A DNA stretch of 64,000 nt from Acidobacteriota bacterium. Its GTDB lineage: Bacteria; Acidobacteriota; CAIWXX01. The stretch is from positions 1 to 64,000 of the forward strand of contig JBFMAF010000023.1 of assembly GCA_040755995.1 (NCBI GenBank), written 5' to 3'. Positions 8,127 through 30,379 of the stretch are shown in pieces. Position 1 is the first letter of the stretch. Every line of letters starts with the position of its first letter. The notes below the pieces were generated by a model, which had not been told where the DNA came from, ran no database searches, and was given only the letters and a program-made list of their open reading frames with translations. Both the position numbers and the translations under genes were made by a program.

Positions 8127-8161
8127 ATTAGTTTGATCTCAAACTAATTATGCCCTATAAT
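8127..8161 (+). promoter_or_regulatory. sigma70-like promoter with 22-bp palindromic operator over the -35
   Basis: ATTAGTTTGA-TC-TCAAACTAAT (8127-8148); -35 TTGATC 8133-8138, 17-nt spacer, -10 TATAAT 8156-8161. Confidence 0.8.
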
Positions 8162-8307
8162 AGCTGCATCGAGCAGCATCGGAGTACTATGCTTTGCGAA
8201 GCGACGGGCGTCGACGGAGCCATGACACCGATTCGGCCCGACGTCTCGCGATTCTCGCGGGGCGGCAGTCATGATCTCGGCACCCTGAGACGGCGGCAGT
8301 GTGCGGC

Positions 8308-9582
8308 ATGTTCAAGTTGAAGCGCTTCGTTCCAGTGGCTCTCCTGAGCACCGTCGCTCTGGCGGCATGTGACGGTCCTCAGACCCGGCCGACTCAAGTC
8401 ACCATTGTCTTCAGGCACGGCAAGGTGCCCGGCGGGCCCAACCTCCTCCGGGAGCTTCTGGACCGATTCGAGAACGAATCCGGCATTCGCGTGGTCGACG
8501 AGACGCTGCCGGCTTCCACGGACATCCAGCATCAGTACTTCATCACCACACTCGAGGGCGGCCGATCCGACCTGGACGTGGTCTCGATGGACGTGATCTG
8601 GGTTCCGGAGTTCAGCAGGGCGGGATGGCTGTTGCCGCTCTCCGAGAGGGTGCCCGGCGCCGCCCGCACCCTGTTCTTCCGCGCCCCTATCGACGCCTGC
8701 ACATTCGCCGGGGATCTCTACGGTGTCCCATGGTACGTCGATGCAGGGGTGCTCTACTATCGAAAGGACATCCTGGAAGCGTACGGCATGGGCATCCCTG
8801 AGTCGTACCCGGAGCTCGCCGGGCAGGTCCGCAGGGTACTCGCGCGTGAACCCACCCTCTACGGATTCCTCTGGCAGGGGAAGCAGTACGAGGGGCTGGT
8901 CTGCTGCGCACTCGAAGTGCTTGCGTCGTTCGGCGGCTCCGTGGTCAGCAAGGGCCGGGTGACGATCGCGTCGCCGGAAGCGCGGGAAGCCTTCCGGTTC
9001 ATGAGAGAGATGGTGGCGAGCGGAATGAGCCCACCGCTGGTGACCACGGCAGACGAGGAGGCCACCAGGCTCGTCTTCGGAAGCGGCAGGGCCGTGTTTC
9101 TGCGTAACTGGCTCTACGCCTGGAGCCTTTTCGAGCGCGAGGGCTCTCCGGTGCGAGGCAAGGTCGGCGTCGCGCCGATTCCGCCGGGTCCTTCCGGCAC
9201 GGGTGGATCTACGCTCGGGGGTTGGCAGCTGGGGATCGCGCGGCAGAGCAGTCACCCCGACCAAGCATGGGCTCTAATCGAGTTTCTGACCAGACCAGAC
9301 TCGCAGGCGCGCCTCGCGCGCACAGTCGGCTACCGGCCGTCGCGCCGTTCGCTTTACGACGACGCGGCGCTGATCCGCGACATCCCCGTCCTCCCGCAGC
9401 TTGTCGGCTCGATCGACCGAGCGCACCCGCGACCTGTGACGGCGCTCTATCCGGCGCTCTCTCAGATACTGCAGCCCGAGATCTCGGCTATCATCACAGG
9501 TGTCAAGGGCGTCGACGAGGCTCTCGAAGACGCGCGCCGTGAGTTGCAGCTGGTGCTGGATGAGATGGCGTGCGACCCGTGA
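8308..9582 (+). CDS. Sugar ABC transporter substrate-binding lipoprotein (trehalose/maltose-like family)
   Basis: Lipobox LAAC; DVIWVPEF, LYYRKD, QGKQYEGLVC, FLRNW, STLGGWQLGI. Confidence 0.9.
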   Translation: MFKLKRFVPVALLSTVALAACDGPQTRPTQVTIVFRHGKVPGGPNLLRELLDRFENESGIRVVDETLPASTDIQHQYFITTLEGGRSDLDVVSMDVIWVPEFSRAGWLLPLSERVPGAARTLFFRAPIDACTFAGDLYGVPWYVDAGVLYYRKDILEAYGMGIPESYPELAGQVRRVLAREPTLYGFLWQGKQYEGLVCCALEVLASFGGSVVSKGRVTIASPEAREAFRFMREMVASGMSPPLVTTADEEATRLVFGSGRAVFLRNWLYAWSLFEREGSPVRGKVGVAPIPPGPSGTGGSTLGGWQLGIARQSSHPDQAWALIEFLTRPDSQARLARTVGYRPSRRSLYDDAALIRDIPVLPQLVGSIDRAHPRPVTALYPALSQILQPEISAIITGVKGVDEALEDARRELQLVLDEMACDP

Positions 9583-9669
9583 GCTCCGATAGAAGAACCC
9601 GGCAGCAGAACGAGAGACGATGTGAGCGAGCGGCGGACCTCATGACGGAAAGGCGAGAAGAGTGAAAAG

Positions 9670-10575
9670 ATGACGGACCAAGTGAGCGAGCGGCGCACGG
9701 CCTTGGCTTTCCTCCTGCCCGGCGCCCTTGCTGTCACCGTGCTCGTGTTCGTGCCACTCGTCTGGGTGGTCTGGCTGAGCTTCAGACGTGCAATGCCCGT
9801 CTTCGGCGTCGACCGGTTCGCGGGGCTGGAGAACTTCGTCCACCTCTTCTCCGACTCGCGCTTCTGGGCTGCCGCAGGCAACACGCTCTACTTCGCAGTG
9901 GTGGCCGTGAGCATCGAGGTAATACTGGGACTTGCCATCGCTCTTCTCATCCACCAGCGCTTTCGCGGGCGCGGCCTCGTCCGCGCGGCGGTCCTGATCC
10001 CATGGGTGATTCCGACCGTGGTCACGGCACGAATGTGGGAGTGGATATACAACCCGGAATTCGGCCTGATGAACTACCTGCTCCGCACCGTCTCGCTGAT
10101 CTCCGGCCCGGTGTCCTGGCTTGGGGATCCGTTCTGGGCCATCCACGCCGCAATCCTCGCCGACGTCTGGAAGACGACCCCCTTCGCCGCCTTGTTGCTT
10201 CTGGCCGGACTGGCCTCGATTCCCCCCGATCTGGCTGACGCAGCACGTGTCGACGGGGCCGGTCTGTGGCAGGTCTTCACGCAGATCACGCTACCTCTGC
10301 TGAGACCTGCTCTGCTCGTCACCGTGCTCTTCCGGTTTCTGGACAGCTTCCGCGTTTTCGACGCCATCTATGTGCTCACGGGCGGGGGACCCGCCAACAC
10401 CACCGAGACGCTCGCGATCTACACCTACAAGGTGCTGTTCCAGACGATGCGCTTCGGATACGGATCGGCGATCGCGTTGAGCACGTTCGCGATGTCAGGC
10501 GTGGCGAGCATCGTGATTGTGGGGCTCGGGAGCCGGTCCGCTCGTGCAACAAGGAGTCCAGACGATGCGCCGTAG
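9670..10575 (+). CDS. Sugar ABC transporter permease (MalF/UgpA-like)
   Basis: FAGLENF, ADVWKTTPF, EAA-like AARVDGA...ITLPLL, TGGGP. Confidence 0.9.
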   Translation: MTDQVSERRTALAFLLPGALAVTVLVFVPLVWVVWLSFRRAMPVFGVDRFAGLENFVHLFSDSRFWAAAGNTLYFAVVAVSIEVILGLAIALLIHQRFRGRGLVRAAVLIPWVIPTVVTARMWEWIYNPEFGLMNYLLRTVSLISGPVSWLGDPFWAIHAAILADVWKTTPFAALLLLAGLASIPPDLADAARVDGAGLWQVFTQITLPLLRPALLVTVLFRFLDSFRVFDAIYVLTGGGPANTTETLAIYTYKVLFQTMRFGYGSAIALSTFAMSGVASIVIVGLGSRSARATRSPDDAP

Positions 10576-11380
10576 AGCTGGATTCCTGCTGCTGCTCTTC
10601 GTGGCGCTGGGCTTCCTGCTGACACCGCCGCTGTGGCAGGTGGCCACGAGTCTGAAGTCCCGCGAGCAGCTCAGCATGCTTCCCCCTCTGCTGCCGGACC
10701 CCCCGACGCTCGAGAACTACCAGGGCGTCTTCGCGGGGAGGCCGTTCGGCCGGCACATCCTGAATGGCACGATCGTGGCGGCACTGACCGCCCTGCTCGC
10801 GCTTCTGCTGGGCGCTCCGGCGGCCTTTGCCGTCAGCAGGCTCGCCATCGCCCGCGCCCGCACCCTTCTCTTCGGATTTCTGGCCGTGTCCTGGATACCT
10901 CCGATCGCAATCGTGAGCCCGATGTACCTGGGCATGCGTGCGTTGGGCCTGCGAGACACGTGGTGGGCTCTCGTCCTGGCAGACACGGCCTTCGTGCTGC
11001 CGCTTACCATCTGGTTCCTCACCACGTTTTTCGACGAGATCCCACAGGATCTGCTGTGGGCTGCGCGAGTGGACGGTGCGACGACAGTCGGCGCGTTCGT
11101 TTACGTGGCGCTGCCGCTCTCAGCCCCCGGCCTGGCGGCCGCTGCGATCGTGGCGTTCATCTATGCCTGGAACGAGTTCCTCTTTTCGCTCGTCCTCACC
11201 AGCTCGCCGGCGGCCCAGACCGTTCCGGTTGCGATCGCCCTGTTCCCAGGCCTGCACGAAATGCCGTGGGGGGAGATCGCGGCCGCCTCGGTGATCGCCT
11301 CCGCGCCCGTTCTGGTGCTCATCCTCATGTTCCAGCGCTGGATCGTACAGGGGCTCACGGCGGGAGCGGTGAGGGAGTAG
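10565..11380 (+). CDS. Sugar ABC transporter permease (MalG/UgpE-like)
   Basis: PTLENY, AARVDGA, FIYAWNEF, QRWIVQGLTAGAV. Confidence 0.9.
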   Translation: MRRRAGFLLLLFVALGFLLTPPLWQVATSLKSREQLSMLPPLLPDPPTLENYQGVFAGRPFGRHILNGTIVAALTALLALLLGAPAAFAVSRLAIARARTLLFGFLAVSWIPPIAIVSPMYLGMRALGLRDTWWALVLADTAFVLPLTIWFLTTFFDEIPQDLLWAARVDGATTVGAFVYVALPLSAPGLAAAAIVAFIYAWNEFLFSLVLTSSPAAQTVPVAIALFPGLHEMPWGEIAAASVIASAPVLVLILMFQRWIVQGLTAGAVRE

Positions 11381-11430
11381 GACGGGGGGCGGCGAAGGAG
11401 CGCAGGCGAACATCGGGACCAGGAGGCAAC

Positions 11431-12684
11431 ATGCAAGGGAATTTGGGGACTGAACACCGCGAACAGCTCTGGAAGATTCTCGAAGCGGCCCTTGGAGCGG
11501 TGCGCGGGTCCGCTTGCGTGAGCAGGTATCTTCGCACGCGAGAGCTGTGCGAGCCGGTCTACTTGATCGCATTCGGGAAAGCAGCGTGCGCGATGGCTCG
11601 TGGGGTGCTGGAAGCGCTCGGCGATCGAATCCTCGACGCCTGCGTCGTGACAAAGCACGGGCACGCCGAGCCGCTTCCGTGGCCGGTGATCGAGGCGGGC
11701 CATCCGGTGCCGGACGAGCAGAGCCTGGAGGCCGGCAGGCGGCTCGTGGACTTCGCCCGGGGAATACCATCCGACGCCCGCGTGCTTGCGCTGCTCTCCG
11801 GAGGCGCCTCGGCAGTGCTGGATCTGCTTCCCAACGGTGTCACGCTCGCGGATCTCCAGGCGCTCAACGGCTGGCTCCTGGGTTCGGGGCTCGACATCGC
11901 GTCCATGAACCGGATACGAAAGCAGGTCTCGCTGATCAAGGGCGGCAGGCTGGCGCGGATGCTCTACCCAAGGCGCGTGTTGTGCCTGGCCATTTCCGAC
12001 GTGCCCGGCGACGATCGGCGCGCGATCGGCTCGGGACCGCTCGTGCCCGACGAGGATCTGCAGAAACCTCTCGACATGGCCGTCCTGCCCGAGCACCTAC
12101 GGACCATCGTGTCGCGTGGCACCCCGGCGCCCGCGCCGGATGATCCATGCTTCGAGGCCGTCGAGTTCCACATTGTAGCGAGGCTCGACGACGCCAAGCG
12201 CGCGGCGGCGGAGGCGGCGAGACGTCTTGGCTACGCGGTGGAAGTGGAAACCGAGTTTGTTTCCGGCGATGCGGTGGAGGCCGGTGCGCGGATGGCGGCG
12301 CGCTTGTTGAGGAGCGCATCGGGAGTCGTGCATGTGTGGGGAGGAGAGACGACCGTGAAGCTCCCGGTGTCACCCGGGCGCGGCGGGCGCAACCAGAGTC
12401 TGGCGCTGTCGGCGGCCAGGGTGTTGCGCGGAGTGTCTGGGGTCTGGTTCCTCGCCGCCGGGACGGATGGCACGGACGGTCCGACTCAGGACGCGGGCGC
12501 TCTGGTCGACGGCGGCACGATCGATCGCGGTGAGGCCCACGGGCTTGACGCAGCCGATTCCATCGCACGTGCCGACGCTGGAACGTTCCTCGAAGCCAGC
12601 GGCGATCTCATCCGCACCGGCCCCACAGGCACCAACGTGATGGACGTTTTCCTGGGGCTTCGTGAGCAGGCGCGCAATGGATGA
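11431..12684 (+). CDS. Glycerate 2-kinase, MOFRL/TtuD family
   Basis: AGGAGG RBS; FGKAA, AGHPVPD, LSGGASA, IKGG, ISDVPGD, GGETTV, GRGGRNQ, GTDGTDGPT, TGPTGTNVMD. Confidence 0.9.
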   Translation: MQGNLGTEHREQLWKILEAALGAVRGSACVSRYLRTRELCEPVYLIAFGKAACAMARGVLEALGDRILDACVVTKHGHAEPLPWPVIEAGHPVPDEQSLEAGRRLVDFARGIPSDARVLALLSGGASAVLDLLPNGVTLADLQALNGWLLGSGLDIASMNRIRKQVSLIKGGRLARMLYPRRVLCLAISDVPGDDRRAIGSGPLVPDEDLQKPLDMAVLPEHLRTIVSRGTPAPAPDDPCFEAVEFHIVARLDDAKRAAAEAARRLGYAVEVETEFVSGDAVEAGARMAARLLRSASGVVHVWGGETTVKLPVSPGRGGRNQSLALSAARVLRGVSGVWFLAAGTDGTDGPTQDAGALVDGGTIDRGEAHGLDAADSIARADAGTFLEASGDLIRTGPTGTNVMDVFLGLREQARNG

Positions 12685-14518
12685 AGGAGCAGGCCGGCCA
12701 CAGTACCGCCTGGAACCGGATTACACGCGACCGCTTCTGGAGATCCCTGAGGCCATCGAACAACGCATCCGCAAGAGGATCCGATTCCTGTATGGCGATG
12801 CGCGCGAGGATGCGGTCTATCGGGAGGTCGAGCGCACGATACTGGTGCATTGCGCGCATGCAACGCCCGAGGTCATCGCATTCGAAAGGCGTTTCGATCC
12901 GACGCAGCGGTTCACGGAGAGAGACGTAGTTCTGATCACGTACGGAGACCTGATTGTCTCGGGAGACAGGCCTCCACTCAAGACCCTGGCCGACTTTGCG
13001 ACGGTGTTCTTTCGCGGCATCATTACCACGCTGCACGTCTTGCCGTTCTATCCGTATTCCTCCGATAGGGGCTTCGCCGTGACGTCCTACAAGGAGGTTG
13101 ACCCGAGTCTGGGAACGTGGGAGGAGATACGAGACATCGCGTCCTCGTTCAAGCTGATGTTCGACGGCGTTCTTAATCACATGTCGTCGAAGAGCGAGAC
13201 ATTCCAGCGATTCCTGGACGGAGACCCGGACGTGCGGGACTATTTCATCGCATTCTCGACCAAGAAGGCCATCGACGACGATCACCTGAAGCTCATTCTA
13301 CGGCCCCGCACCTCGCCGTTGCTCACGGAGTTTCCCACGATCAAGGGGCAGAGGTTCGTGTGGACGACGTTTTCGGCCGATCAGATAGATCTGAACTACA
13401 AGAACCCGAAGGTCCTCATCGATGTGCTCGAGGTCTTGCTCGGTTATTGCCGCCGGGGCGCGGATCTCATCCGGCTGGACGCTGTCACCTACCTCTGGCA
13501 CGAGCTGGGTACATCGTGCGCCCATCTCGAACAGACCCATGAGATCGTCAAGCTGATTCGCGATGTCCTCGATGCAGCAGCGCCGCATGTGGGTATCATC
13601 ACGGAGACCAATGTGCCGCATCGAGACAACATCACGTATTTCGGAGACGGTTCGGATGAGGCCCAGATGGTCTACAACTTCGCTCTGCCGCCGATCCTGC
13701 TGCACACCTTTCTGAAGGGGGACGCCGGGGCCCTCTCAAGGTGGGCCGGGACACTCGCCCCGCCGTCCAGCACGACCGCTTTTTTCAACTTCCTCGATTC
13801 CCACGACGGCATCGGACTACTCGGGGCGAGAGATATCCTGACCCCGCTAGAGATCGCCGCCCTGTGCGACTGGGTGAGGGAAGAGGGTGGGTTTGTATCC
13901 GTGAGGACCGATGGAGACGGCAAGGAGAGCCCCTATGAATTGAACATCACCTGGTTCAGCGCGTTGAACGGCGGAAGCCAGCTCGATCCGGTCGAGATAC
14001 AGGTGGCCCGGTTCATGGCATCCCGAGCGGTAGCACTGTCGCTGCGGGGCGTTCCCGGAATTTACCTGCCGAGCATGTTCGGCTCGGCGAACGATGTCGA
14101 TGCCGTCTACCGCGATGGCACGTACCGCAGCATCAACCGTGCCGCCATAGACGAAGAACAGCTCCTTCAGGCATTCGCTGATCCGGGCTCAGTCCCGGCC
14201 CGCATCGCCAGGAGCTACATCAGACTCCTCGATGTGAGGGTTCATGAGCCCGCCTTTCACCCCAACGGTGACCAGAAGGTCCTGGATCTGAGTCCGGCGG
14301 TATTCGCCACCGTCCGCACGTCTCCCGACCTCGCATCTCGCGTGGTGTGTCTGATCAATGTCACTCGTGAGGCCGTGCCACTGGACGTGCCGCTCGGAGC
14401 GACATGCGTGTGCGGCAGCGCGCTTCACGACTTGATTACAGGCCGAAGCATCTCTCCTGATTCCGACCCCTGGCATCTCGTCATGGAGCCATACCAGATC
14501 ATGTGGCTCAAGGAGTGA
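12677..14518 (+). CDS. GH13_18 sugar phosphorylase, likely glucosylglycerate phosphorylase
   Basis: LITYGD, SSDRGF, VLNHMS, WTTFSADQIDLN, RLDAV, ITETNVP, SHDGIG, YELN; adjacent glycerate kinase. Confidence 0.85.
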   Translation: MDEGAGRPQYRLEPDYTRPLLEIPEAIEQRIRKRIRFLYGDAREDAVYREVERTILVHCAHATPEVIAFERRFDPTQRFTERDVVLITYGDLIVSGDRPPLKTLADFATVFFRGIITTLHVLPFYPYSSDRGFAVTSYKEVDPSLGTWEEIRDIASSFKLMFDGVLNHMSSKSETFQRFLDGDPDVRDYFIAFSTKKAIDDDHLKLILRPRTSPLLTEFPTIKGQRFVWTTFSADQIDLNYKNPKVLIDVLEVLLGYCRRGADLIRLDAVTYLWHELGTSCAHLEQTHEIVKLIRDVLDAAAPHVGIITETNVPHRDNITYFGDGSDEAQMVYNFALPPILLHTFLKGDAGALSRWAGTLAPPSSTTAFFNFLDSHDGIGLLGARDILTPLEIAALCDWVREEGGFVSVRTDGDGKESPYELNITWFSALNGGSQLDPVEIQVARFMASRAVALSLRGVPGIYLPSMFGSANDVDAVYRDGTYRSINRAAIDEEQLLQAFADPGSVPARIARSYIRLLDVRVHEPAFHPNGDQKVLDLSPAVFATVRTSPDLASRVVCLINVTREAVPLDVPLGATCVCGSALHDLITGRSISPDSDPWHLVMEPYQIMWLKE

Positions 14519-14609
14519 TCCCGTCCGCAGCCGCATAGTGCGCACGCCTGGGCTGCCTCTCGTTCACGGATCTCAACTCACGCCCAACAGGAGAGTCGCG
14601 TCCGCGGAT

Positions 14610-16028: not shown

Positions 16029-16119
16029 TGATCCATTCTCCTCCTCTGGAAGCAGTCGCCGGCGTTGCGACGTCAGGGTGGACGAAATGTGGTGCACCTG
16101 TTTATGAATACCCAGCTCG

Positions 16120-16152
16120 AAAAACGCCGGCGGGGCGCCGATGCCCCGCCGG
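16120..16152 (-). terminator. Intrinsic terminator after gene 16196-18220
   Basis: 10-bp stem CCGGCGGGGC/GCCCCGCCGG followed by CGTTTTT on the minus strand. Confidence 0.65.
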
Positions 16153-16195
16153 TAGTTGTCGTCGACTTGGCGATGCGCGGCCTGCTGGTAGAGGG

Positions 16196-18220: not shown

Positions 18221-18275
18221 TTCTTCCCCTCCTCTGAGAACTATTGATGCTGATCCGTACTATATCACTCACGCC

Positions 18276-18337: not shown

Positions 18338-18832
18338 CTACCGTCCCAGAGCCTGCTGGAGTCTATCGGGTTCTTGACTTCCCAGCAAGACCCTTCGGGT
18401 TGGGATGAAAAAGAACTTGATCTCGGTTGATAGCGAGAGCAGGATGCCGCGGTTCCCTCGCAAGGTGTGGCAGACGGTCCATGCTCCCTGGAATCGACCG
18501 CATCGGATCCCCCAGCCGCCGAACTGCCGGAATGGTCTGTAGCTGACCACCTCGGTCTTCTCGATCGCCTGGACCGGAATGATCTTCGTAAGCCAGCCGA
18601 GGTATCCCCAGCGGACGGTCAAGTTCTCCGCATCTACGTCGATCACAAGACGCCCGAAAAGCGCGGGTATGGCCGCAAGCAACAGCCCGACGAGAAGCAG
18701 AAGCCACACCGTGGGCGCGGGGCTCAGGACGATGAAGACTGCGAGGAACACCAGCATGAAGACGTACAGGAACTGGACGAGCGGATGGAAGGCGATGGCT
18801 TCGGAGTACAGATAGGGCATCTTCAGACTCAC
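18338..18832 (-). CDS. Small membrane protein (two TM helices, GGWGIR motif, bacterial PH-like)
   Basis: Two hydrophobic segments then YRPFRQFGGWGIR; follows the operon directly. Confidence 0.7.
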   Translation of the reverse strand: MSLKMPYLYSEAIAFHPLVQFLYVFMLVFLAVFIVLSPAPTVWLLLLVGLLLAAIPALFGRLVIDVDAENLTVRWGYLGWLTKIIPVQAIEKTEVVSYRPFRQFGGWGIRCGRFQGAWTVCHTLRGNRGILLSLSTEIKFFFIPTRRVLLGSQEPDRLQQALGR

Positions 18833-18834
18833 CG

Positions 18835-19536
18835 CTACAGGTGCGAGATCTGATCCTTGTGCTCGTCGCCGGATGGCGGTTTGTGGAGATAGTGCTCGAG
18901 CAGGTCACGGGCGAGGTCTCGGCCGGCGAGACCGAAGGCGATGGAAAGCGCGATCACGACACCGCCAAACAGGATCGAGAACGCGGCCACCACGACGCGG
19001 GCGGCGAGACCGACCTGTTCGAGCGCGAGGGCCAGCACGAACACCATGATGCCGATCCCCACGGCCCCGCTCACCAGGCGCGCGCCGGGAAACTGCGCGT
19101 TGACCAGCGCGATCAGCACGCCGCGCTGGAGGAACTTGGCCAGCAGCGCGCCGACGATGAAAAGCACAACCGCGATGAAAAGATTGGGGAGGAATCGGAG
19201 GAGGCGCTCGAGCAGAGAGTGAGCCAGCGTCTCATCAAGGGTGCTGACCGAGAGGGCGATGGCGACGACGATGACGATGCCGGCGAACAGTCCGCCCATC
19301 AGGCGGCTCGGCGCCACCGCCAGACCTCCGCGCGCGAGCATCGACCGGATTCCCATGCGGTCGCAGAGCCTGTCGAACCGGGCGAGCGCGAGAGCGCGGC
19401 TGACCACGGATCGGATCAGCCATGCAACGATCACGCCGATGGCGATCACAAGGAGGCTGGCCAGAAGGCGCGACAACAGCAGCCATGCCTGCATGCCAAT
19501 CCTCACGATCGGTTCGATGAACTGGTCGAAGTTCAT
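18835..19536 (-). CDS. MscS-related TM-helix membrane protein
   Basis: Repeated TM helix units (FLPNLFIAVVL), LEQVG...AFSILFGGVVIALSIAFGLAGRD. Confidence 0.75.
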   Translation of the reverse strand: MNFDQFIEPIVRIGMQAWLLLSRLLASLLVIAIGVIVAWLIRSVVSRALALARFDRLCDRMGIRSMLARGGLAVAPSRLMGGLFAGIVIVVAIALSVSTLDETLAHSLLERLLRFLPNLFIAVVLFIVGALLAKFLQRGVLIALVNAQFPGARLVSGAVGIGIMVFVLALALEQVGLAARVVVAAFSILFGGVVIALSIAFGLAGRDLARDLLEHYLHKPPSGDEHKDQISHL

Positions 19537-20822
19537 TGGGACCCTCCTTTCCTGCCTGTCGCCCCCCAGCGCTTCACGAAGTCAGGTTTCAGACGGGCGA
19601 AGCTGCTGCAAAGCTTCTCCCAGCACTGCTCCACATCCTCCGCCGCGCTCTCCATGTACCGCGACACGACATGCGCCACGCGGCCAAGGTAGAGCGGCGT
19701 CAGGGACTTGAGCAGGTGCGTGCGAGGCAGCTGTCTGCGGTGACAGGCGAGCGCAAACGCGTACACGATCTCACTCCACAGTTCTTCATCCAACTCTGCC
19801 GTGATCCCTCCAGCCGAGGCGCGTGCCCGGAGACGGCTCCACACGCCCGCCTCGCCCATGACCTGCTCGTAGAGGGGAGCCAGGTCGCGGAGACCGATCT
19901 CGACGGCCCGCTTCATCCGGTCGAGGTTGGGTTGCATAGGATCGGTGGTGGCGTAGAACGGGAAGCCGAACATCGGGACAGTCTCGACAGCCACGTCGCC
20001 TGTCCAGACTGCATCGTATCTCTCCATCAGCTCGAACACCGATCCGACTACCTGCACCAGCATCTCACTCAGGTCGGCGCCGGGATCCTTCGGATCGTGT
20101 ATCTTGGCGCCGAGGTACGACTGGCAGACACGGTAGCCTTCGGCCAGCGCCACGCTCGTCATCCAGATGTCGATGCCGAACCGGGCGACATCGCTCTCCC
20201 ATACATCCTTGCCGAGATAGCAGCGCGCCAGCCGTGTCGAGAAACCGAAATCCCCCCCGATGGGCTGACGGATGGCGCGGCCGTACAACGCCCGCGTCAG
20301 CGGATAGACGATGTTGTTTGTGATCGTGCCGTCGAACTTGTGGCGGAGGTAGTAGGGCGCCACATAGTCGAAGTTCTGCTCGAGCACCGGTCCGACCAGC
20401 AGCTCGATCCACTCCGGCGTGATGCTGCGCAGGTCCGAGTCAACGACGGCGCACGCTTTGGCATCCAGATCGCTCGCGATCTGGAAGATCGTCCGGAGGG
20501 CGCTGCCCTTTCCGGGAAGCCCGTGGTACGGAGTGCTGATGCGGTGAACCGGGTGAACCGGATGTCGAGCCAGCAGCAGAGTCTGCTCATCCACCGCTGC
20601 CTGCATGACGGTTTCCCGTGTGCCATCCTTCGATCCGCCATCACTATTCGCCACGACCGCCTTGCGGTCCGGGAAGTACTTCTTGAGGCCGGCCATAACC
20701 GCCCGGATCACGTGTCCTATGGTCTTACTGTTATTGTAGCTGGGGATGCCGACCACGATCTCCGCGGACTTGATCGCGGCGAGCTCCCGCTTCAGAGCGG
20801 GATCCAATTCAACGGGTCTCAT
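19533..20822 (-). CDS. GT-A glycosyltransferase, glucosylglycerate synthase (Ggs)-like
   Basis: VVGIPSYNN, NSDGGSKDGT, PGKGSA, VDSDLRSI, RHKFDGTITN, RQPIGGDF, FGIDIW, KIHDPKD; context next to gpgS/gpgP. Confidence 0.75.
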   Translation of the reverse strand: MRPVELDPALKRELAAIKSAEIVVGIPSYNNSKTIGHVIRAVMAGLKKYFPDRKAVVANSDGGSKDGTRETVMQAAVDEQTLLLARHPVHPVHRISTPYHGLPGKGSALRTIFQIASDLDAKACAVVDSDLRSITPEWIELLVGPVLEQNFDYVAPYYLRHKFDGTITNNIVYPLTRALYGRAIRQPIGGDFGFSTRLARCYLGKDVWESDVARFGIDIWMTSVALAEGYRVCQSYLGAKIHDPKDPGADLSEMLVQVVGSVFELMERYDAVWTGDVAVETVPMFGFPFYATTDPMQPNLDRMKRAVEIGLRDLAPLYEQVMGEAGVWSRLRARASAGGITAELDEELWSEIVYAFALACHRRQLPRTHLLKSLTPLYLGRVAHVVSRYMESAAEDVEQCWEKLCSSFARLKPDFVKRWGATGRKGGSQ

Positions 20823-21696
20823 CGTGGCACTCCGATCCGCCTGATCGAAGCCCGTCGGTCAGGCGCAGCCGGACACCCGGCAGGACGATGGGGAGGACGG
20901 TCGCCCACCCCAGTGGTGCGGCCGCCGCGGCCCGGCGGGCCTTTGGGAGAGCGACCGAGATGCTGCGGTCATAGCCGCCGTCAGGGCCGCGGATCAGAAT
21001 CGGCACGTCCACCGACTTGAGCATGGGCAGGTCGTTCAGGCTGTCGCCGAGACCGGCGAAGCGGACGCGCGGCCAGAGGCGCCGATAGAATGCCTTCAGG
21101 ATCTCGACCGCGCGTCCCTTGTCCGCGACCCCCTTGGCGTGGTAGAAGCGGTTGCCGCGCGTTACTCGCAGGCCCGGCCACCGGCGGAGCTCCTTCAGAA
21201 ACGCATCTTGTTTCGATGGTGACTCGGTCACGAACCAGAACGGCTCATCGAACTCCCTGGCCTTGGCGAGCCGCGCCTTCGCGCGCGGCAATCCGGTGAC
21301 GCGGCTGATCTCCCCCGGGCCAAGCCTCCCGAACCGTCCGATCCTGCAACGCGTCTCGGCCTCCGCCGTGTCGAGGGCCTTGACGAGGGTGCGGTACGAG
21401 AGGCCCTGTTCAATCGCAACGTAGGCCCCGCGTGCCACTGCGCCTTCCAGCGGAAAACGAAAGCAGCCCTTCGGAACGTAGACTGCGCCGCCGTTCTCCA
21501 CGATGAACGGGTCGCGGATACCGAGGTCCTCTCGCAGCTCTTCGACCTCGGCACGCGTCTTGCTGGTGCAGAACACGATGGGGATGCGCCGGCGCTGGAG
21601 GGCACGCACGGCCGGGCGGAGCGGCGTGTAGTCGTAGTCCCGGACACCGAGGAAGGTCCCATCGAGATCCGTGAATATCACCCACCGCTGGCTCAT
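20809..21696 (-). CDS. gpgP: Glucosyl/mannosyl-3-phosphoglycerate phosphatase (HAD IIB)
   Basis: FTDLDGT, CTSKTRAE, ENGG, REFDEPF, DKG, GLGDSLNDLPML. Confidence 0.8.
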   Translation of the reverse strand: MSQRWVIFTDLDGTFLGVRDYDYTPLRPAVRALQRRRIPIVFCTSKTRAEVEELREDLGIRDPFIVENGGAVYVPKGCFRFPLEGAVARGAYVAIEQGLSYRTLVKALDTAEAETRCRIGRFGRLGPGEISRVTGLPRAKARLAKAREFDEPFWFVTESPSKQDAFLKELRRWPGLRVTRGNRFYHAKGVADKGRAVEILKAFYRRLWPRVRFAGLGDSLNDLPMLKSVDVPILIRGPDGGYDRSISVALPKARRAAAAAPLGWATVLPIVLPGVRLRLTDGLRSGGSECHDETR

Positions 21697-21752
21697 GGCG
21701 CCACCCTTCATCGAGGCATCTATACAGCGCGTCATGCACAGCTCCGACTGGT

Positions 21753-23012
21753 TCAACCTGTTGTTGACTCATGAGGCGCTGTACAGGCGGCATCCACAAC
21801 GGGTCTGGTGGAGTCGAGGTCGACGGCCTCTTCGAGCCTGTCGAGGAAGTCGGGCATTGCCGCCGTGATCCGGTTCCAGTTAGGGATCAACGGCGTGCCC
21901 AAGGGATCCTCGATGAACGACTCGGACGCGATCCGTATCGCGTCTGCGAACGTTTCGACCGCGGTCTCTTCCTCATGCCGGTCGAAATCGAGGCCGTCGA
22001 TCATGGCATCCGCGTGATAGCGTGTGATCGTGTCTTCGGCCGTTCGGATGTACTTGACGAGGACCGTGCGAAACACGCCCGTGCTGAAGACCACTCCCTC
22101 GGCCGTGAGCGTTCGAAACAGGTTTCTGGCGATGTCGACCGCCATCTTCTTGAGGCCCTTTGACGGGTCGTCCGCGGAGAGTGTCTGGTGCTTGTGCTCG
22201 TAGTTCTCGCAGAGCTCCGCCTGGCAGATCCTCTTGAGGGCGCAGTTCCGGTAGATTTCGGCCAGCACGCCGACCTCCAAGCCCCAGTCCGGAGGGACTC
22301 GATTCAGGCGGGCCAGGTCGGCGCTCATGGAGAATTCGCCGGCCAAGGCATAGCGGAAGCTGTCCAGGTAAACCAGAATCGGCAGGAACCCGAGAATCCC
22401 CTGGAGGGTCCTGATCAGAGGCGTCATGAACAGCCGCGTCACGCGGCCGTGCATTCGACTGGTCACCCGCGCGTAGTATCCTTTGCAGAAATCAAAGTTG
22501 ATTTCTGGGCTGGCCACCGGATAGCACAATCGCGCAAGGAGCTCGCGGTCATAAGTGAGAATGTCACAATCGTGCAGGGCTATGAATTCGCTCTTCTCGC
22601 TGGCCAGCACGTAGCCATAGGCCATCCAACAAGAGCGGCCCTTCCCATCCCCGCCAACGGGGAGTTCCTTGGCCCGGAGTTCCTCATAGAGTTTCTGGAT
22701 TCTGGGACCGCTGTTCCAGATGAAGCGAGTTTCGCAGTTCATCTCGGAAAAGAATCGCTTCGCCAGCTCGAATTGCTCAGGGCTCGTCTGTCCCAGCGTC
22801 ACGACGATCTGGTCGAGATACTCGACCTTCTCGAGCTCCTGGATGATTCTCGGAAAGGCAGGCCCTTCGAATTCCGCATAGAGTGCGGGCAAGACCAGCG
22901 CGATGCCGCGCTGGTCACGCATGAGCAGCAGCCGTCTTTCCAGGTGTTCGTACTCGCCGGGCCTCAACCTGTGCAACGTGGCGACGGCACCGGTCTGATA
23001 GAAGTCCGCCAT
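21753..23012 (-). CDS. gpgS: Glucosyl-3-phosphoglycerate synthase
   Basis: MADFYQTGAVATLH, GKGRSCW, HDCDI, FCKGYYAR, GRVTRL, YALAGEF, DWGLEVG, YEHKHQ. Confidence 0.8.
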   Translation of the reverse strand: MADFYQTGAVATLHRLRPGEYEHLERRLLLMRDQRGIALVLPALYAEFEGPAFPRIIQELEKVEYLDQIVVTLGQTSPEQFELAKRFFSEMNCETRFIWNSGPRIQKLYEELRAKELPVGGDGKGRSCWMAYGYVLASEKSEFIALHDCDILTYDRELLARLCYPVASPEINFDFCKGYYARVTSRMHGRVTRLFMTPLIRTLQGILGFLPILVYLDSFRYALAGEFSMSADLARLNRVPPDWGLEVGVLAEIYRNCALKRICQAELCENYEHKHQTLSADDPSKGLKKMAVDIARNLFRTLTAEGVVFSTGVFRTVLVKYIRTAEDTITRYHADAMIDGLDFDRHEEETAVETFADAIRIASESFIEDPLGTPLIPNWNRITAAMPDFLDRLEEAVDLDSTRPVVDAACTAPHESTTG

Positions 23013-23149
23013 GGCTCACCTCCTTGTCGCTGACGGTTCACTGGTGCACGCCCGCCTTCCCCGAAGGCATCGACTCCAGGTGCCGCACGTCGTCCGCGCA
23101 CTCGCCCCGCGGCTTCCGGACTGCGCAGTCCAGCAGGCGAAACACGTGT

Positions 23150-25336
23150 TCATGAATGCTTCCATGGGGCCTCGTCACATGGTGAATGCATTCTAGCAGG
23201 AAAGTGGCTAGGTGGAGCCTGGATTCGACGCAGCAGGACCAACGAATGTCCATGGAGCTCGTGGAAGCCCTTGCATGCGAACGAAGGGCATGCAGGAGTT
23301 GCGGCTGCCGTGTCGACGAGGATTTCCCACTCCCAGTCCCGGCATGCCGGGGGCAACTGGAATCGAACGCGATCGTCGTCTGCGTTCAGAAGCAGTGCCA
23401 GGGTGTCTCCTGTCACACGCTCCCCATTTCGATCGGTCTCGTCCATGGCATCGCCGACGAAGACTGCCCCCAGACAGCGAATGAAGTCCGTGTTCCAGGA
23501 CGCCTCGGTCATCTCCGCCCCGGCAGTATCAAACCAGAGGATGTCCTTTCCGAAGGGGCCCGAGGTCACTTCTCCACGGAAGAACTTGCGTCGTCGAAGC
23601 ACCGGCTGGTCGCCGCGAATTCTCATCACCTGCCGGACGAAATCGAGGAATTCTGTCTTGCGGGGGTCAGGCGTCCAGTCCAACCAAGAGAGCGGAGAGT
23701 CCTGGCAGTAGGCATTGTTGTTGCCCCCCTGCGTCCGTCCGATCTCGTCGCCGCCACAAAGCATGGGGACACCTTGCGAGAACAGCAGAGTCGCCAGGAA
23801 GCTGCGCTTCTGCCTCTCCCGCACACCACGAACGCCCTCCTCGGAGGTGGGACCTTCCACTCCACAGTTCCAGCTCAGGTTCTCGTCCTCGCCGTCCTTG
23901 TTGCCCTCACCGTTCTCCTCATTGTGTTTCTGGTTGTAGCTGACCAGATCCTGAAGCGTGAAGCCGTCGTGAGACGTGATGAAATTTATGCTGGCGAAAG
24001 GACGGCGCCCGCTCTGCTCGTACAGGTCGCTGCTTCCCGTGAGGCGACTGGCGAGCTCCCGCACCATCCCCGGATCGCCCCTCCAGAACCGCCGGGCCGC
24101 ATCACGGTACTTCGCGTTCCATTCCGTCCATCCTACGGGGAAGTTGCCGACCTGATACCCTCCTTCGCCCAGATCCCATGGCTCGGCGATGAGCTTCGTC
24201 TGGGAGAGCACTGGATCCTGAAGGATCACGTCGAAGAACGCACTCAGCCTGTCGACCTCGTAGAGCTCACGCGCCAGCGTACTCGCGAGGTCGAAACGAA
24301 ACCCGTCCACGTGCATCTCCAAGACCCAGTAGCGGAGGCTGTCCATGATCATCTGAAGGACGCTCGGGTGCCTCATGTTCAGGCTGTTCCCGCACCCTGT
24401 GAAGTCCATGTAGAAGCGCGGATTCTCCGGGACCAGACGGTAGTAGGCTGCGTTGTCTATGCCGCGGAACGAAAGGGTCGGACCCAGGTGATTCCCTTCG
24501 GCGGTGTGGTTGTACACTACGTCCAGAATGACTTCAAGACCTGCAGCATGCAGCGCTCGCACCATCCTCTTGAATTCCCTGACGGACTCCTCTGGATTTG
24601 GCGTAGTGGCGTATCGGATATCCGGGGCGAAGTAGGCCAGCGTGTTGTAGCCCCAGTAGTTGCTCAGCCCGCGGTCCACCAGATGGCGGTCGTCGACGTG
24701 GTGGTGCACCGGCATCAGCTCGACCGCAGTCACGCCGAGCTCCTTCAAGTGCCGGATGGCCGCCTCGCTGGCCAGGCCGGAGTAGGTTCCCCGCAAGCGC
24801 TCCCGCACACCGAGATGCTGGCGCGTGAATCCGTTCACATGCAGTTCGTAGATCACGGTGCGATGCCACGGAGTCGACGGCGGCCGGTCGTCTCCCCACG
24901 TGAACGCCTGATCGATGACCGCTGCCAGAGGCGCGAATGCAGCGTTGTCCCGCTCATCGTAAGAGAGATCCTCCGCGGGATCAGCGATTCGGTAGCCAAA
25001 CATCGCGTCATTCCATCGCACGCGCCGCCCGATGGCCTTCGCATAAGGGTCGATCAGCAACTTGTTGGGATTGAAACGATGTCCCGCCTGCGGGTCGTAC
25101 AGACCCTGGACGCGGTAGCCGTACAGCTGCCCGGGCAAGAGGTCGGGCAGGTAACCGTGCCAGATCAGGTGAGTCTGCTCTGGGAGCGGGATCCGATGGG
25201 ATTCGGTGGGCGAGTGGAGAGAGTCGAAGAGACACAGTTCGACCTGAGTGGCATTCTCGGAGAAGATGGCGAAGTTGACGCCGGCTCCATCCCACGTGGC
25301 GCCGAGCGGATAGGGCTGGCCCGGCTTAATCCTCAT
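23150..25336 (-). CDS. glgX: Glycogen debranching enzyme GlgX/TreX
   Basis: [54 protein letters not shown]. Confidence 0.95.
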
Positions 25337-25343
25337 GGTCCCC

Positions 25344-28298
25344 TCACTCATCAGGGTCCGCCTCGCCAGCCCGCGAGCCGCCCACGCTGCTGTTGCCATG
25401 GAGTAGAGCAACAGGGAAGCGTCTCAGGACGGTGTGAAGGGTGAGAACCGGTCCCGTAGACCCGGACGCCTGGCTGATCGCTTCTCCGGTGAGCGCGTTC
25501 TTCCAGTGCAGCGGCGCCTCTGGAGGGAGAAGTAGCGCAGTCTCGCCCCAGACATCGCGACCGAGAGGCGCCTGGGCGCGCTCCAGGCGCTTCGCCATGA
25601 ACCGAGGCACTACGACCACTGCCCAGTCCGTGCCATGTTCGCGGCCAAATGCCAGCACATGGGCTTTCAACTCCCCGGCGGCCTGCAGGGGTACGTATGC
25701 CCCATGAAGGAAGAGCTCTGGATGGATGCCCCGGAGGCCCAACGCGCGACGTATCACATGGAGCTTGATCCGCCCGTCCTTCCAGTAGTAGAGGAGGCCT
25801 TTCGCCAGCGGGATCAGCCCCCGGTGTTCCTGTTTCTGCAGCGAGCGCACAATGGATTCACGCCTCAAGAAGTCCACCGGCCCGCGGTTGTCGGGGTCAA
25901 CCAGTCTGAAGTCCCAGAGTTCTTCACCCTGGTAGAAGTCGGGCACACCGGGCGCCACGATCTTGACGAGGGTCTGAGAGATCGAGTTGATCATCCCGAA
26001 ATAGCCGATCTTCTCGCAGAAGTACTCCATGTCTGGTAGAAAGAGATTCTCGGGCTCCGGAGCCAGTATCTGTCTTGTGAACCGTGAGACGGCCTCCTCG
26101 TAAGCGCGATTCGGATTGAGCCAGCTCGTGTGAACCTTCGCCTCCCTGAGGGCCTTCTCGACGTAGCCTGTAATCCTCTGAACCAGCACCTGCCGCTCTC
26201 CATCGTCCGGCCGTTCGAGTGGCCACACACCGACCAGGGTCTGGTAGAGGAGGTACTCCTCGTTGCGATCGGGGACCTCACTCGCACCGGCTCTGGATTT
26301 CCACTTGGCATTGTGATTGGACCAGCGATTGAGCGCGGCATCCCAATCAGCCGGCATCTCGGAAAGCACGTTGACACGTGCGCGAACATCCCCGCTTCTC
26401 TTGGCATCGTGGGTGGAGGTCGCCGACAGGGCGTGAGGCTGTTCCCTCATTCGCTCCACCATCCTCCCGTGGAACTCCGCCACGCTCACGCCGAACGGCT
26501 CAGGGCTGCCGCCGACCTCGTTGAGCGAGGCGAGCGGGTAGTAGCGATAGAACGCCGTGTCCTCGATCCCCTTCGCCATGACAGGCGGCGTGAGCTGCTG
26601 AAACCTCAGGACGAACGCCTGGCGATCTTGCCGAGCCGCCTCGGTCAGGTCGTCGGGGTAGTCGAGCAACAGCACCGAGGCAATGAAGTCAAAGATGGAT
26701 TCGTCCGTGGCGGGGTTCCTGGCCTTTGCTGCCTGGACCGCATCCATCACGCACCGCCGCTCCTGTTCCTCCGCGCTCTTCGACCCTGGGCGCACGTAGG
26801 TCCGATACACCGAGAAACACGCGATGACCTCACGCAGCGCGGCGTGCAGGCTCGATTGCGTGAAATCACGAGACCATCGGTGCTGCTCGGAGATGGCGTC
26901 CAGACGCCGGCTCAGCGCGTACAGCTCGCTTGACATCATCGAGTCGAGCACGACCTGCTTGCTTCGGTAGCCGATGTCGGCGAACGACATCGTCTGGTTC
27001 GTGTATCGAGAGTATAGATCGTGAACGGCGCGCTCGGCGCCGCGGTCGATGAAAAGACCGTTCAGCCTGTTGAGGAAGTCATACCCCGTCGTTCCGCTCA
27101 CGGCCCACCTGGGCGGGAGTCGTTCTGGAGGATTGAGTATCTTCTCAACCAACAGGTAGCAGGGCCAGGCGTCGGAAGGGGGCGCCTTGGGAGGGGGTAC
27201 AGCGTCGGCATCCTCGGAAACTCGCCGGAACAGACGATGCAGATCGAGGAAGTACTGTTCTGGGTCCAGAAGCCCGTCGGGGTGATCGATCCGTAATCCC
27301 GGGAAGCAAGCCTGCAAAGCCGGCAGTTTCAGTATGCTGTGAACGGTCTCGAACACCTCCGGATCTTCGACTCGGATCGCAGCGAGATCATTGATGTCGA
27401 AAAACCTGCGATAGTTGATCTCATCGGCAGCGACTCTCCAGTAGCAAAGTCGATACCCCTGATCGGCGAGGAACGCTTCGAGTCGATCGAAACTGCGCGG
27501 ATCACCGGAACGGCCGTTCATTTCCTCAAGCTCTTCGAACAGTGCCGTGCGGACCTCGCTGGAGCTCTCGACCAGGGTTGCCAGACGCCGGCCGGCCACC
27601 CCCTTCTCCCGCATGCGCTCCTGCACCTTCTCGGGTTCCGTCTGGGTCCTCGGAGGCAGGTACTGCAGCGAGGTGATGATGCTCTCCAACTCGACCATCG
27701 CCGGCAACGCAGGGTCGACGGCCCTCCTCGCTCGATCGAGCGCAGGAGCGAGCACCATTCCCCAGCTCCTCGGTGCCACGGGAAACCGCATGTCCCCGTA
27801 ATACACCCAGAACGAGCCTCCTTCGTAACCAAGGCGAAGCTCACCCCTCTCGAGAACCCTTCCATACTGTTCGCCAAGGATTGGCAGCAGGATCTTGTTC
27901 GCCAGCTCCTGCTTGGAGGGAGACCAGTCGATGTCGAAGAAGCGTGCGTAGGGTGACGATGGTCCGTTCTCCAGCACGTCGCGCCATCGCCAGTTCGTCT
28001 CATCCACCGACGTGTGATTGGGTACGATGTCCAGAAGAAGCCCCATTCTGCGATCCGTCAGGAGATCCACGAGAGCCACAAGATCCTCCTCGGTGCCCAG
28101 CTCGGGGTTGATGACGGCGTGGTCGGTGACGTCGTATCCATGCAGACTCCCAGGGCGTGCCTTGAAAATCGGGGAGAGATAGACATGGCTGATGCCCAGC
28201 TCCTGGCAATAGGGCACCACCCGGGCCACATCGCGCAGGCCGAATCGCGGCGTCAATTGCACACGGTAGGTTGCCAGAGGGACGTCGGCATGCATCAT
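25344..28298 (-). CDS. treY: Malto-oligosyltrehalose synthase
   Basis: [68 protein letters not shown]. Confidence 0.95.
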
Positions 28299-30172
28299 GG
28301 GTTCTCTCCTCCTCTCGTCCGGCCAAGGCCGACGGCGGGCGCCCGGTCGAATAGCACGCATGAGAACCGGGACAGCTCGATGGTCAGAGTCCCCTCGGAG
28401 GATACGATACGTGCCGGGACCCTGCTACCCCCGCCATGCCAGCGCGGTTCGCTTGAATCCAACAGCTTGTCCCACACGCCGCTCGGAACTGGGACGGAGC
28501 GCTCAGCAGCGGTTGCACCGAAATGGTAGACTGCGAACACGCCCCGATCATCGGACCCTCGCGATAGCCAGAGCAGCTCGTCGGATTCGACCGCAGCCTC
28601 TACTCGGCCGCCGTTTCGAGACCCGATCGCCGTGTGTTCGCGTCGTATCCGAAGCAACTCCCGATAGAATGCGCGCAGAGCTCCGTGGACGGGCTCAGGC
28701 CGCACATGGTGTTTGAGTTTCGACTCGAGGTAGGTGGACAGATCCGCCGGGTCCGGGATCGCTTCGTTCCAGCCGAACGATGCGAACTCCTTTTGGCGTC
28801 CGCGGCGCACTTCTTCTATCAGTTGAGGATCTCCGTGACTGACGAAATACTGAAAAGGTGCCGTCTCGCCGTATTCCTCTCCCATGAACAGTAGCGGGAT
28901 GTAAGGGCTGAGAATGATGAACGCAGCTCCGAGCTTGAGCTGTTCGATGTCGAGCTGCCGGCTGAGGCGGTCGCCACGTGCCCGATTGCCTATCTGATCG
29001 TGGTTCTGCAGGAAGACGACAAGACGCCGCTTGTCGACGTCCCGCAAAGGGGCGCCATGCCGGCGCCGGCGATAGCAGGAGTACTCGCCTGTGAAGATGA
29101 ATCCCTCACTCAATCCCTTGGCAAGCTGTTCCAGCCGGCCGAAGTCCTGGTAGTAGCCTCCTCTCTCCCCGGTCAACACGGTGTGGATAGCATGATGGAA
29201 GTCGTCATTCCACTGAGCATCGAACCCGAGGCCGCCGGCGGAGGCTGGTGCGAGCACCCCGGGATCGTTCGAAGCGCTCTCCGCAATGAGAAACACTCGG
29301 CGATGCTCGTTCCTGCCGAGATCGTGGACGGCCTCGGTCAGCTCCTGCAGGAAGGGTCTTGCGCTCGCATCCACGATGCTGTGGATCGCGTCGAGCCGGA
29401 GCGCGTCGACGTGGTATTCTCGAATCCAGTAGAGGCCGTTCTCGACGAAGAAGCGTCGAACGTGGTCGCTCTCCGGGCCATCGAAGTTGAGAACGTCCCC
29501 CCAGGGCGTGCGGTGCCGTTCGGAGAAGTATGGCCCGAACTCGTGCAGGTAGTTGCCTTCCGGACCGAGGTGGTTGTACACCACGTCCAGCACGACGGCC
29601 AGGCCGCGCCGGTGACATTCATCCACAAGCCTCTTGAGCCCCGTCGGTCCCCCGTAGGAGTTCTGCACCGCAAACGGGAACACGCCGTCGTAGCCCCAGT
29701 TGCGCTCTCCCGGGAACTGGGCAACCGGCATGAGCTCGACGGCGGTGACGCCGAGCCCGGCCATGTCATCCAGGTGGGGGATGATCGCGTCGAACGTGCC
29801 TTCCGGGCTGTACGTGCCGACGTGGAGCTCGTACAGCACGTAGTCCTCGAGCGGCCTTCCGGGCCAGCCGGAATCGTGCCACCGGAACGCAGCGTGATCG
29901 ATGATCTCAGAAGGACCATCGATACCGGCGGGCTGGAAATGCGATGCAGGATCCGCCCGCTGCGAGCCTCCGTCGAGCCGGTAGCAGTAAAGAGATCCCG
30001 GGTCAGCCGAGTCGAGGGATGCATGAAAATAACCATGCTCCTGCCGGTGCATCTCCACGATACGTTCGGCCGGAGAGAGGACATGGAGCTCGACGCGGGT
30101 CCTCCGCGGCGCCCACATGAGAAACTCGCACTGGTTCACACCCAACCACGTGGCGCCCAATTGCATCTCCAT
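28295..30172 (-). CDS. treZ: Malto-oligosyltrehalose trehalohydrolase
   Basis: YELHVGT, RNWGYDG, DVVYNHLGPEGNYL, RLDAIH, QWNDDFHH, QNHDQIGNR; GAGGAG RBS before ATG 30172. Confidence 0.95.
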   Translation of the reverse strand: MEMQLGATWLGVNQCEFLMWAPRRTRVELHVLSPAERIVEMHRQEHGYFHASLDSADPGSLYCYRLDGGSQRADPASHFQPAGIDGPSEIIDHAAFRWHDSGWPGRPLEDYVLYELHVGTYSPEGTFDAIIPHLDDMAGLGVTAVELMPVAQFPGERNWGYDGVFPFAVQNSYGGPTGLKRLVDECHRRGLAVVLDVVYNHLGPEGNYLHEFGPYFSERHRTPWGDVLNFDGPESDHVRRFFVENGLYWIREYHVDALRLDAIHSIVDASARPFLQELTEAVHDLGRNEHRRVFLIAESASNDPGVLAPASAGGLGFDAQWNDDFHHAIHTVLTGERGGYYQDFGRLEQLAKGLSEGFIFTGEYSCYRRRRHGAPLRDVDKRRLVVFLQNHDQIGNRARGDRLSRQLDIEQLKLGAAFIILSPYIPLLFMGEEYGETAPFQYFVSHGDPQLIEEVRRGRQKEFASFGWNEAIPDPADLSTYLESKLKHHVRPEPVHGALRAFYRELLRIRREHTAIGSRNGGRVEAAVESDELLWLSRGSDDRGVFAVYHFGATAAERSVPVPSGVWDKLLDSSEPRWHGGGSRVPARIVSSEGTLTIELSRFSCVLFDRAPAVGLGRTRGGENP

Positions 30173-30344
30173 GGTGACAGCGCTCCTCAGCACTCCCGGT
30201 GAGCCAATTCCCCCGCCGGCTCCGCCAGACTGGAGCAGACGCATCGGTGGATCGGAGATTCCAGTTCGCGCCGGCAGAGACTGCGGTGGCCCCAGCGTGA
30301 CGCCTCGCGCGACCAACCCATCTGCCGGATCACGTCGACACTCA

Positions 30345-30379
30345 ATTCTAGCAGACCATTAGTTTGAGGTCAAACTAAT
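30345..30379 (-). promoter_or_regulatory. sigma70-like promoter of treZ operon with the same 22-bp operator over the -35
   Basis: Minus strand ATTAGT-TTGACC-TCAAACTAAT-GGTCTGC-TAGAAT: -35 30373-30368, 17-nt spacer, TGn-extended -10 30350-30345. Confidence 0.8.

Follow-up and report, generated by a model that had tools for sequence, protein, structure and literature searches.

Among regulators of the MarR family that act on operons for the synthesis and uptake of compatible solutes, CosR of Vibrio has the consensus site TTTGA-NN-TCTAA (PMC8070244, a paper citing the original), and EctR1 of Methylomicrobium alcaliphilum is autoregulatory and has its binding site over a promoter element (PMC5924519). 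A further MarR repressor, PA3458 of Pseudomonas aeruginosa, acts on the operon for the osmoprotectant N-acetylglutaminylglutamine amide (NAGGN) and has the motif TTTCAGTTGGAAGCA at more than 300 sites (PMC8070244), and HucR of Deinococcus is urate-responsive and has an 18-bp site, TAGGTAGACATCTAAGTA (PMC6694116). The cue that frees EctR/CosR from DNA is described as largely unsettled (PMC13342039; PMC5924519). The subject of this study is a 22-bp palindrome, ATTAGTTTGA-NN-TCAAACTAAT, which occurs twice in a 64,000-nucleotide stretch of DNA (hereafter the window; contig JBFMAF010000023.1, positions 1 to 64,000, of the Acidobacteriota genome assembly GCA_040755995.1). On sequence evidence the palindrome is held with good confidence to be a real operator, likely that of an undescribed CosR/EctR-related MarR repressor, designated P0001.

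The two palindromes lie at 8127-8148 (centre TC) and 30358-30379 (centre GG), with the same 20 arm bases in both and unlike central bases. No further match was found in the window with up to 3 mismatches, and none of 100 shuffles contained any match. Sites were scored with a matrix made from 44 sites of other genomes, which were chosen by likeness to the core in the window's own genome and of which one or two are possibly chance. Each palindrome contains the -35 hexamer of a predicted promoter whose -10 faces inward, toward its operon, and in a promoter scan both predictions were the sole match in their own region of about 1 kb (shuffle means 0.2 and 0.1). The initial annotation, made from the letters of the window, had described two palindromes with identical arms, the centre of each forming a -35 exactly 17 nt from a -10 that faces an operon, and this description was borne out (20 of 20 arm bases the same). 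The elements are as follows.

8127..8148, no strand, candidate palindromic operator 1, core GTTTGA-NN-TCAAAC; score 33.2 with the matrix from other genomes, background at most 17.6
8133..8161, plus strand, predicted sigma-70 promoter; -35 TTGATC at 8133-8138 inside the operator, 17 nt, -10 TATAAT at 8156-8161; consensus match only
30358..30379, no strand, candidate palindromic operator 2; score 35.3, the highest in the genome
30345..30373, minus strand, predicted sigma-70 promoter; -35 TTGACC at 30373-30368 inside the operator, 17 nt, extended -10 (TG) TAGAAT at 30350-30345; consensus match only

Directly past operator 2, at 30404-34302, lie two salt-related genes, nhaB and a gene for a KefC-like K+/H+ antiporter. 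The gene nhaB was left out as an operator target, because that side has no -10 and the gene starts at least 260 bp away.

The window's own genome, G000, comprises 7.7 Mb and is 99.84 % complete, and a genome-wide search found exactly five copies of TAGTTTGA-NN-TCAAACTA, against an order-3 Markov expectation of 3e-5 for a pattern that was picked after being seen. All five precede osmotic-stress genes. In addition to the two window copies, one copy at C19:28248 heads an otsA-otsB-marR-DUF5752-treT operon, one at C19:39401 precedes genes for a membrane protein and a CLC chloride channel, and one at C36:319124 precedes a Na+/Ca2+ exchanger gene. The five sites scored 28.5 to 35.3, and the next best scored about 17.5, which is the level of the reversed-matrix control. 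The palindrome behaves like an operator over the -35 and not like a dispersed repeat at unrelated positions. The copies at C19:28248 and C36:319124 are 76 % identical over 164 bp and are a duplicated divergent otsA/exchanger promoter, each with one gene and the remnant of the other, and window site 8127 and C19:39401 are 83 % identical over 65 bp; the five copies make up about three independent promoter lineages. After the latter two paralogous promoters a GGAG (ribosome-site-like) and a 43-codon open reading frame (ORF) occur at equal offset (window 8189-8320 and C19:39463), with encoded peptides that are unlike each other and may be chance or remnants. The two OtsA copies of G000 (C19:28288-30555, and C8:204250-206440, L001:10289-12556) are 63 % identical and have a 260-residue N-terminal extension with membrane segments, and the operator occurs at the C19 copy only.

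P0001 is encoded by the marR gene of the C19 otsA-otsB operon (C19:31325-31798) and has 157 amino acids, with matches above cut-off to PF12802 (50.1 bits) and PF01047 (44.5 bits). It fell below the cut-off of every named MarR subfamily in NCBIfam, nothing matching it was found in the plasmid collection, and all 23 matches of its family profile among solved structures were MarR-type or unnamed regulators. Of 13 regulator-like loci checked in G000 (12 MarR_2 and one ROK), P0001 is the only one for which a site was found no more than 4 kb away (score 33.6 versus at most 11.7). The initial annotation had postulated one repressor encoded outside the window, and P0001 on C19 is the likely one; its suggestion of a ROK-family, XylR-type repressor was not supported. 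The resemblance to XylR on which that suggestion was built holds in part, since the outer arms TTAGTTTG and CAAACTAA, 8 bp in all, equal those of the Bacillus subtilis xyl site. That site has 25 bp, with 10-bp arms around 5 central bases and 9 nt between TTAGTTTG and CAAACTAA (PMC12034463), whereas the G000 site has 10-bp arms around 2 bases and 4 nt between the same elements, a spacing 5 bp shorter; in the matrix of foreign sites, moreover, conservation lies in the inner TTTGA and is lowest in the outer arm bases. One of the target operons encodes a sugar ATP-binding cassette (ABC) transporter, which would also suit a ROK, LacI or TrmB sugar repressor, but no such regulator with the palindrome upstream was found in G000: the sole ROK gene begins 7 residues before the kinase motif, has no N-terminal DNA-binding region and is of the kinase type; no LacI helix-turn-helix was found in G000; and the two weak, marginal TrmB-like matches have no site within 4 kb. 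As the genome has neither a ROK repressor nor LacI and the XylR spacing differs, a sugar repressor is extremely improbable, and because the core recurs beside homologues of the P0001 gene, P0001 is the likely regulator.

PA3458, compared by description, resembles P0001 in being a MarR regulator encoded beside an osmolyte synthesis operon, and differs in its motif and in its more than 300 sites versus five in G000. The HucR site shares with the G000 site a 2-bp centre and 6 of 8 left-arm bases, the difference being that HucR responds to urate; we know of no osmotic targets of HucR. The core of the site resembles the CosR consensus, with TTTGA-NN-TCAAA in G000 and agreement at 9 of 10 specified bases.

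Recurrence of the core (GTTTGA-NN-TCAAAC, 12 bases, at most 2 mismatches, within about 1.5 kb of a family marR) was determined at family loci that were taken without regard to the motif, namely the 40 best of about 74 matches from one order and a phylum sample and, from metagenomes, the 80 best of 598 matches. The core was found at 18 of the 40 loci, compared with 1 for the reversed pattern (Markov mean 1.3), and at 23 of the 80 metagenome loci, compared with 1 for the reversed pattern (Markov mean 3.6). At five loci (L105, L108, L252, L255 and L262) it occupies the intergenic space between a marR and an otsA gene that diverge, and the distance from the site to the start of the family marR is often no more than 100 bp, whichever other neighbour is present. 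Among 41 relatives the 18-bp site and marR are present in the same 2 genomes. A count over 201 genomes of one order, which as kin are not independent, gave the pattern in 43 of the 67 that have marR and in 37 of the 134 that lack it. In genome G001 the site heads otsA'-otsB-marR, and the palindrome lies before marR's own operon (otsA-otsB-marR), over its presumed promoter, in both G000 and G001; further G001 sites precede genes for MscS, a Na+/H+ exchanger and, as in G000, a small membrane protein. Genome G464 has five sites in 9 kb around marR, MscS, CLC, degP, Na+/H+ exchanger and otsA genes, and the neighbours of the site elsewhere are otsA/B, CLC, MscS, Na+/H+ exchanger and OmpA-domain protein genes and one ectABCD-mscS operon. 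The exact 14-base pattern occurs in 7 of 301 phylum genomes, and in 5 of these as single matches without marR and without osmotic neighbours among the query genes, which are read as chance.

The operator-led small membrane protein (L002:826-1341, minus strand, and L074:10061-10705 in G001) has no Pfam match and ends in a CxxC...HxxCxxC-like C-terminal tail that is present in at least 5 other G000 proteins. Tandem operators 15 bp apart occur at L159:1598, L162:2686, L163:975 and L167:2678. Most of these pairs are flanked by a CLC gene and an OmpA-domain gene, and the arrangement suggests that two dimers may sit next to each other. At L369:750-5630 (G509, order Vicinamibacterales) a complete ectABCD operon is followed by mscS, and the operator lies just after a possible -10. 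Core-like sequences at L367:6997-7086 (G389) are part of an inverted repeat element with several copies in that genome and are not operator-like.

The position of the site relative to promoters was compared across genomes. A TA...T hexamer lies 16-18 nt after TTGAnn at 22 of the 44 foreign sites and 4 of the 5 own sites, and across the foreign sites 26 such hexamers were counted at 16-18 nt, whereas no other spacing between 8 and 39 nt had more than 3. Hexamers like a -10 occur at this distance on both sides of 2 of the 5 own and 4 of the 44 foreign sites. Such double-sided sites, a -35 consensus that starts TTGA and the partial paralogy of the copies would fit an account without a repressor, in which the symmetry arises from back-to-back overlapping -35 elements of a duplicated bidirectional stress promoter, or one in which the MarR protein activates. 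Both window sites, however, are fully symmetric though a -10 is present on one side only, half of the foreign sites (22 of 44) lack the -35 geometry, with some lying just after a -10 (L369, L009), and the tandem copies at L159, L162, L163 and L167 also argue against it. Activation is further opposed by the 17-nt spacer, which is already optimal, unlike the spacer of MerR-type activated promoters. This account is considered very unlikely.

With P0001 as a repressor, a dimer would bind across the palindrome and cover the -35, and repression would be steric, sigma being blocked from TTGAnn; at a symmetric site one dimer could cover the -35 elements of two divergent promoters. P0001 would in this way hold down expression of the operons for trehalose, glucosylglycerate and ion transport until it is released by osmotic stress, and because its own operon carries the site, it may limit its own level through the otsAB operon by negative feedback, unlike CosR of Vibrio parahaemolyticus, which is not autoregulated (10.1101/845297). 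The weakest step is the signal, which by analogy may be cytoplasmic ionic strength or osmolarity; release by ionic strength has been proposed for EctR, CosR and BusR, and is proposed but not proven for CosR/EctR (PMC5924519).

Kinship with CosR/EctR was examined using stand-ins for the characterised CosR and EctR1 (four ectA-adjacent MarR proteins and four best matches from ectA-bearing proteobacterial genomes), to which P0001 is 18-26 % identical. A profile-profile comparison matched the P0001 family to the EctR/CosR type at 98.8 % (E 1e-16). In trees (LG+G4, midpoint root, limited outgroup) the P0001 family (support 100/99) and the ectA-linked group (100/97) form separate clades, with P0001 outside the EctR/CosR clade, and in a 37-row tree that adds a third MarR clade the two are joined at 96/95 versus 17 other MarR proteins; the first large MarR tree was a quick tree with long branches. 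The matrix made from the 44 foreign sites scored at least 15 before 5 of 28 proteobacterial ectA genes and before none in the control (30 ectA loci came from 251 sampled proteobacterial genomes, two loci at contig ends being left out). The P0001 family is probably sister to the EctR/CosR types, and P0001 likely works like CosR/EctR yet is not a member of that subgroup. The regulon also differs, as it covers trehalose (OtsAB, TreYZ, TreT), glucosylglycerate, CLC, MscS and cation exchangers, while none of its five targets in G000 is an ectoine or betaine operon, and the system resides in an Acidobacteriota host with a perfectly symmetric site centred on the -35. Members of the third MarR clade (L380 in G509, L381 in G479 and L373 in G516) are closer to EctR than P0001 is and lie beside CLC in two of the three cases; close to the start of the gene, L381 and L373 each show a weak inverted repeat of their own. 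G509, the relative with a site before ectABCD, also has a third-clade MarR.

Several results weigh against the P0001 reading. The matrix core is circular, although its flanks are not; the second G000 otsAB copy, on C8, has no site; and the C36 site lacks the 16-18 nt geometry. The sister relation of P0001 and EctR was weak (78/38) in a 39-row tree before the third clade was added, and the EctR profile places P0001 (39.8 bits) below another G000 MarR (43.1 bits). An initial search of the genome collection gave 61 loci, chiefly from myxobacteria and a single Vicinamibacterales branch, with almost no sites in their upstream regions. Scores stayed below 19 at 36 of 38 mostly myxobacterial family loci and at all 15 from the Vicinamibacterales branch, so that these have no site near the gene. 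In 48 genomes of the former set the 2-mismatch pattern was near control level genome-wide in most, a count that is uninformative. A set of 30 otsA loci, 16 of them in genomes with marR, was collected without reference to marR, and no site was found at any of them in the 1.5 kb flanking the catalytic domain; this flank misses operon-internal otsA genes (the nearest upstream site of the G464 otsA is 5 kb away). G479, which is 96 % complete, has four good sites and a third-clade MarR only, with no P0001-family gene. Lastly, a Methylomicrobium ectR mutant stays salt-inducible (PMC5924519), from which a repressor of this kind may damp rather than switch. Because many family and otsA loci have no site and G479 has sites without the gene, the regulon appears mostly local and variable.

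The case of G479, the absence of nearby sites from most myxobacterial homologues and the closeness to EctR of the third clade in G479, G509 and G516 all favour an account in which the site is an operator but its binder is another regulator that travels with osmotic genes (another MarR clade or an unrecognised family), P0001 being a regulated neighbour. G000 and G001, however, have no third-clade member (best EctR-profile scores 43-48 bits versus 62-68) and yet have the best sites, and the frequent position of the site within 100 bp of the family marR start also speaks for P0001. This account is considered unlikely, although the third clade may serve the site in some genomes.

The operons behind the two window operators are convergent, at 8.3-14.5 kb (plus strand) and 18.3-30.2 kb (minus strand), and contain the following genes.

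8308..9582, plus strand, sugar ABC solute-binding lipoprotein; PF01547, nearest solved structure the trehalose/maltose-binding protein 1EU8 (E 1e-78), ATG at 8308
9670..11380, plus strand, two ABC permease genes; PF00528 twice
11431..12684, plus strand, glycerate 2-kinase (MOFRL type); match below equivalog cut-off
12662..14518, plus strand, predicted GH13_18 glucosylglycerate phosphorylase; GH13_18 matches, TETN at residue 314, Glu in YELN at 425
18338..18832, minus strand, small membrane protein, no family matched; end of the minus-strand operon
18835..19536, minus strand, mechanosensitive-channel transmembrane-helix protein; PF05552, NF033912 below cut-off
19533..20822, minus strand, GT2 glycosyltransferase, predicted glucosylglycerate synthesis
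20809..21756, minus strand, MPGP-family phosphatase, predicted glucosylglycerate synthesis
21753..23012, minus strand, GpgS-like synthase, predicted glucosylglycerate synthesis
23150..25411, minus strand, glgX; family models TIGR02100, TIGR02401 and TIGR02402 above cut-off across glgX, treY and treZ
25344..28361, minus strand, treY; glycogen-to-trehalose route with glgX and treZ
28295..30172, minus strand, treZ; ATG at 30172

The plus-strand operon has no ABC ATPase gene, and a MalK-like gene is located on contig C55. The TETN motif and a loop-A Glu are fingerprints of glucosylglycerate phosphorylase (PMC7178133), both of which the predicted window phosphorylase fits; the in vivo role of glucosylglycerate phosphorylase itself is unconfirmed according to the same source. 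The prediction for the three genes at 19533..23012 is based on TIGR01486, above cut-off, and on NF040724 (372 bits) and NF010496, both below cut-off. The two operons support the earlier proposal that the site links uptake and catabolism with synthesis of compatible solutes, and because uptake, synthesis and the phosphorylase share one control, this arrangement suggests that the solute pool is built up and turned over jointly.

The same annotation had called the segment between the sites a 22-kb island. Related solute operons are indeed bracketed by the operators, but these are two convergent operons split by a gap of about 3.7 kb with two unrelated genes (14610-18220), and no sign of a mobile island was seen: window GC is unremarkable, no tRNA was found in the window, and no integrase or recombinase was found among the 46 window ORFs scanned. 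A mobile 22-kb segment with the palindromes as recombination or inversion sites at its ends would account for two copies that bracket a block of related genes, and paralogous promoter copies with gene remnants do indicate past rearrangement; three further copies, however, stand singly on other contigs at promoters, the scanned ORFs include no recombinase, and the promoter spacing is conserved in many genomes, and this origin is hardly credible.

The gap contains a 472-amino-acid ORF (14610-16028, minus strand) with a signal-like start and no Pfam match, preceded by a DUF1565/FG-GAP gene and by a strong hairpin that resembles a terminator (16127-16152). Elsewhere in the window, several Ser/Thr kinase-TPR genes, extracytoplasmic function (ECF) sigma factors and one FHA protein are encoded at 87-7460, 34615-37842 and 55878-58304. 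The stretch 40487-55315 holds a cluster of paralogues for secreted proteins of the beta-propeller (SBBP)/TIG and CARDB repeat kinds, with internal repeats of 177 bp.

The P0001 system is a regulon reconstruction of a familiar kind and not a new mechanism. No MarR operator on otsA, treYZ or glucosylglycerate genes, nor such an Acidobacteriota regulon, was found in the open full-text literature as searched by titles and the starts of abstracts, with subscription journals and regulon databases outside its scope. A wider proposal, which is tentative and somewhat doubtful, is that CosR/EctR are only the proteobacterial branch of an old cross-phylum lineage of osmotic repressors with one operator, TTTGA-NN-TC(A/T)AA, whose half-sites would serve as -35 elements as well, a single dimer thereby silencing both members of a divergent promoter pair; the regulon would be solute-independent (trehalose, glucosylglycerate or ectoine, with chloride channels, MscS and cation exchangers), which would point to a direct ionic-strength sensor and not to ligand binding. 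As a probable sister group whose 22-bp operator is perfect, whose regulon is closed at five sites and whose targets have no metabolite in common, the P0001 family would allow a clean test of ionic strength versus solute as the signal, and if confirmed, it would supply a compact salt-responsive promoter/repressor pair. If true, the finding extends CosR/EctR-type control to a new phylum and to new protective solutes, and would provide, as far as the literature searches reach, the first regulatory map of osmoprotection for these soil-type Acidobacteriota.

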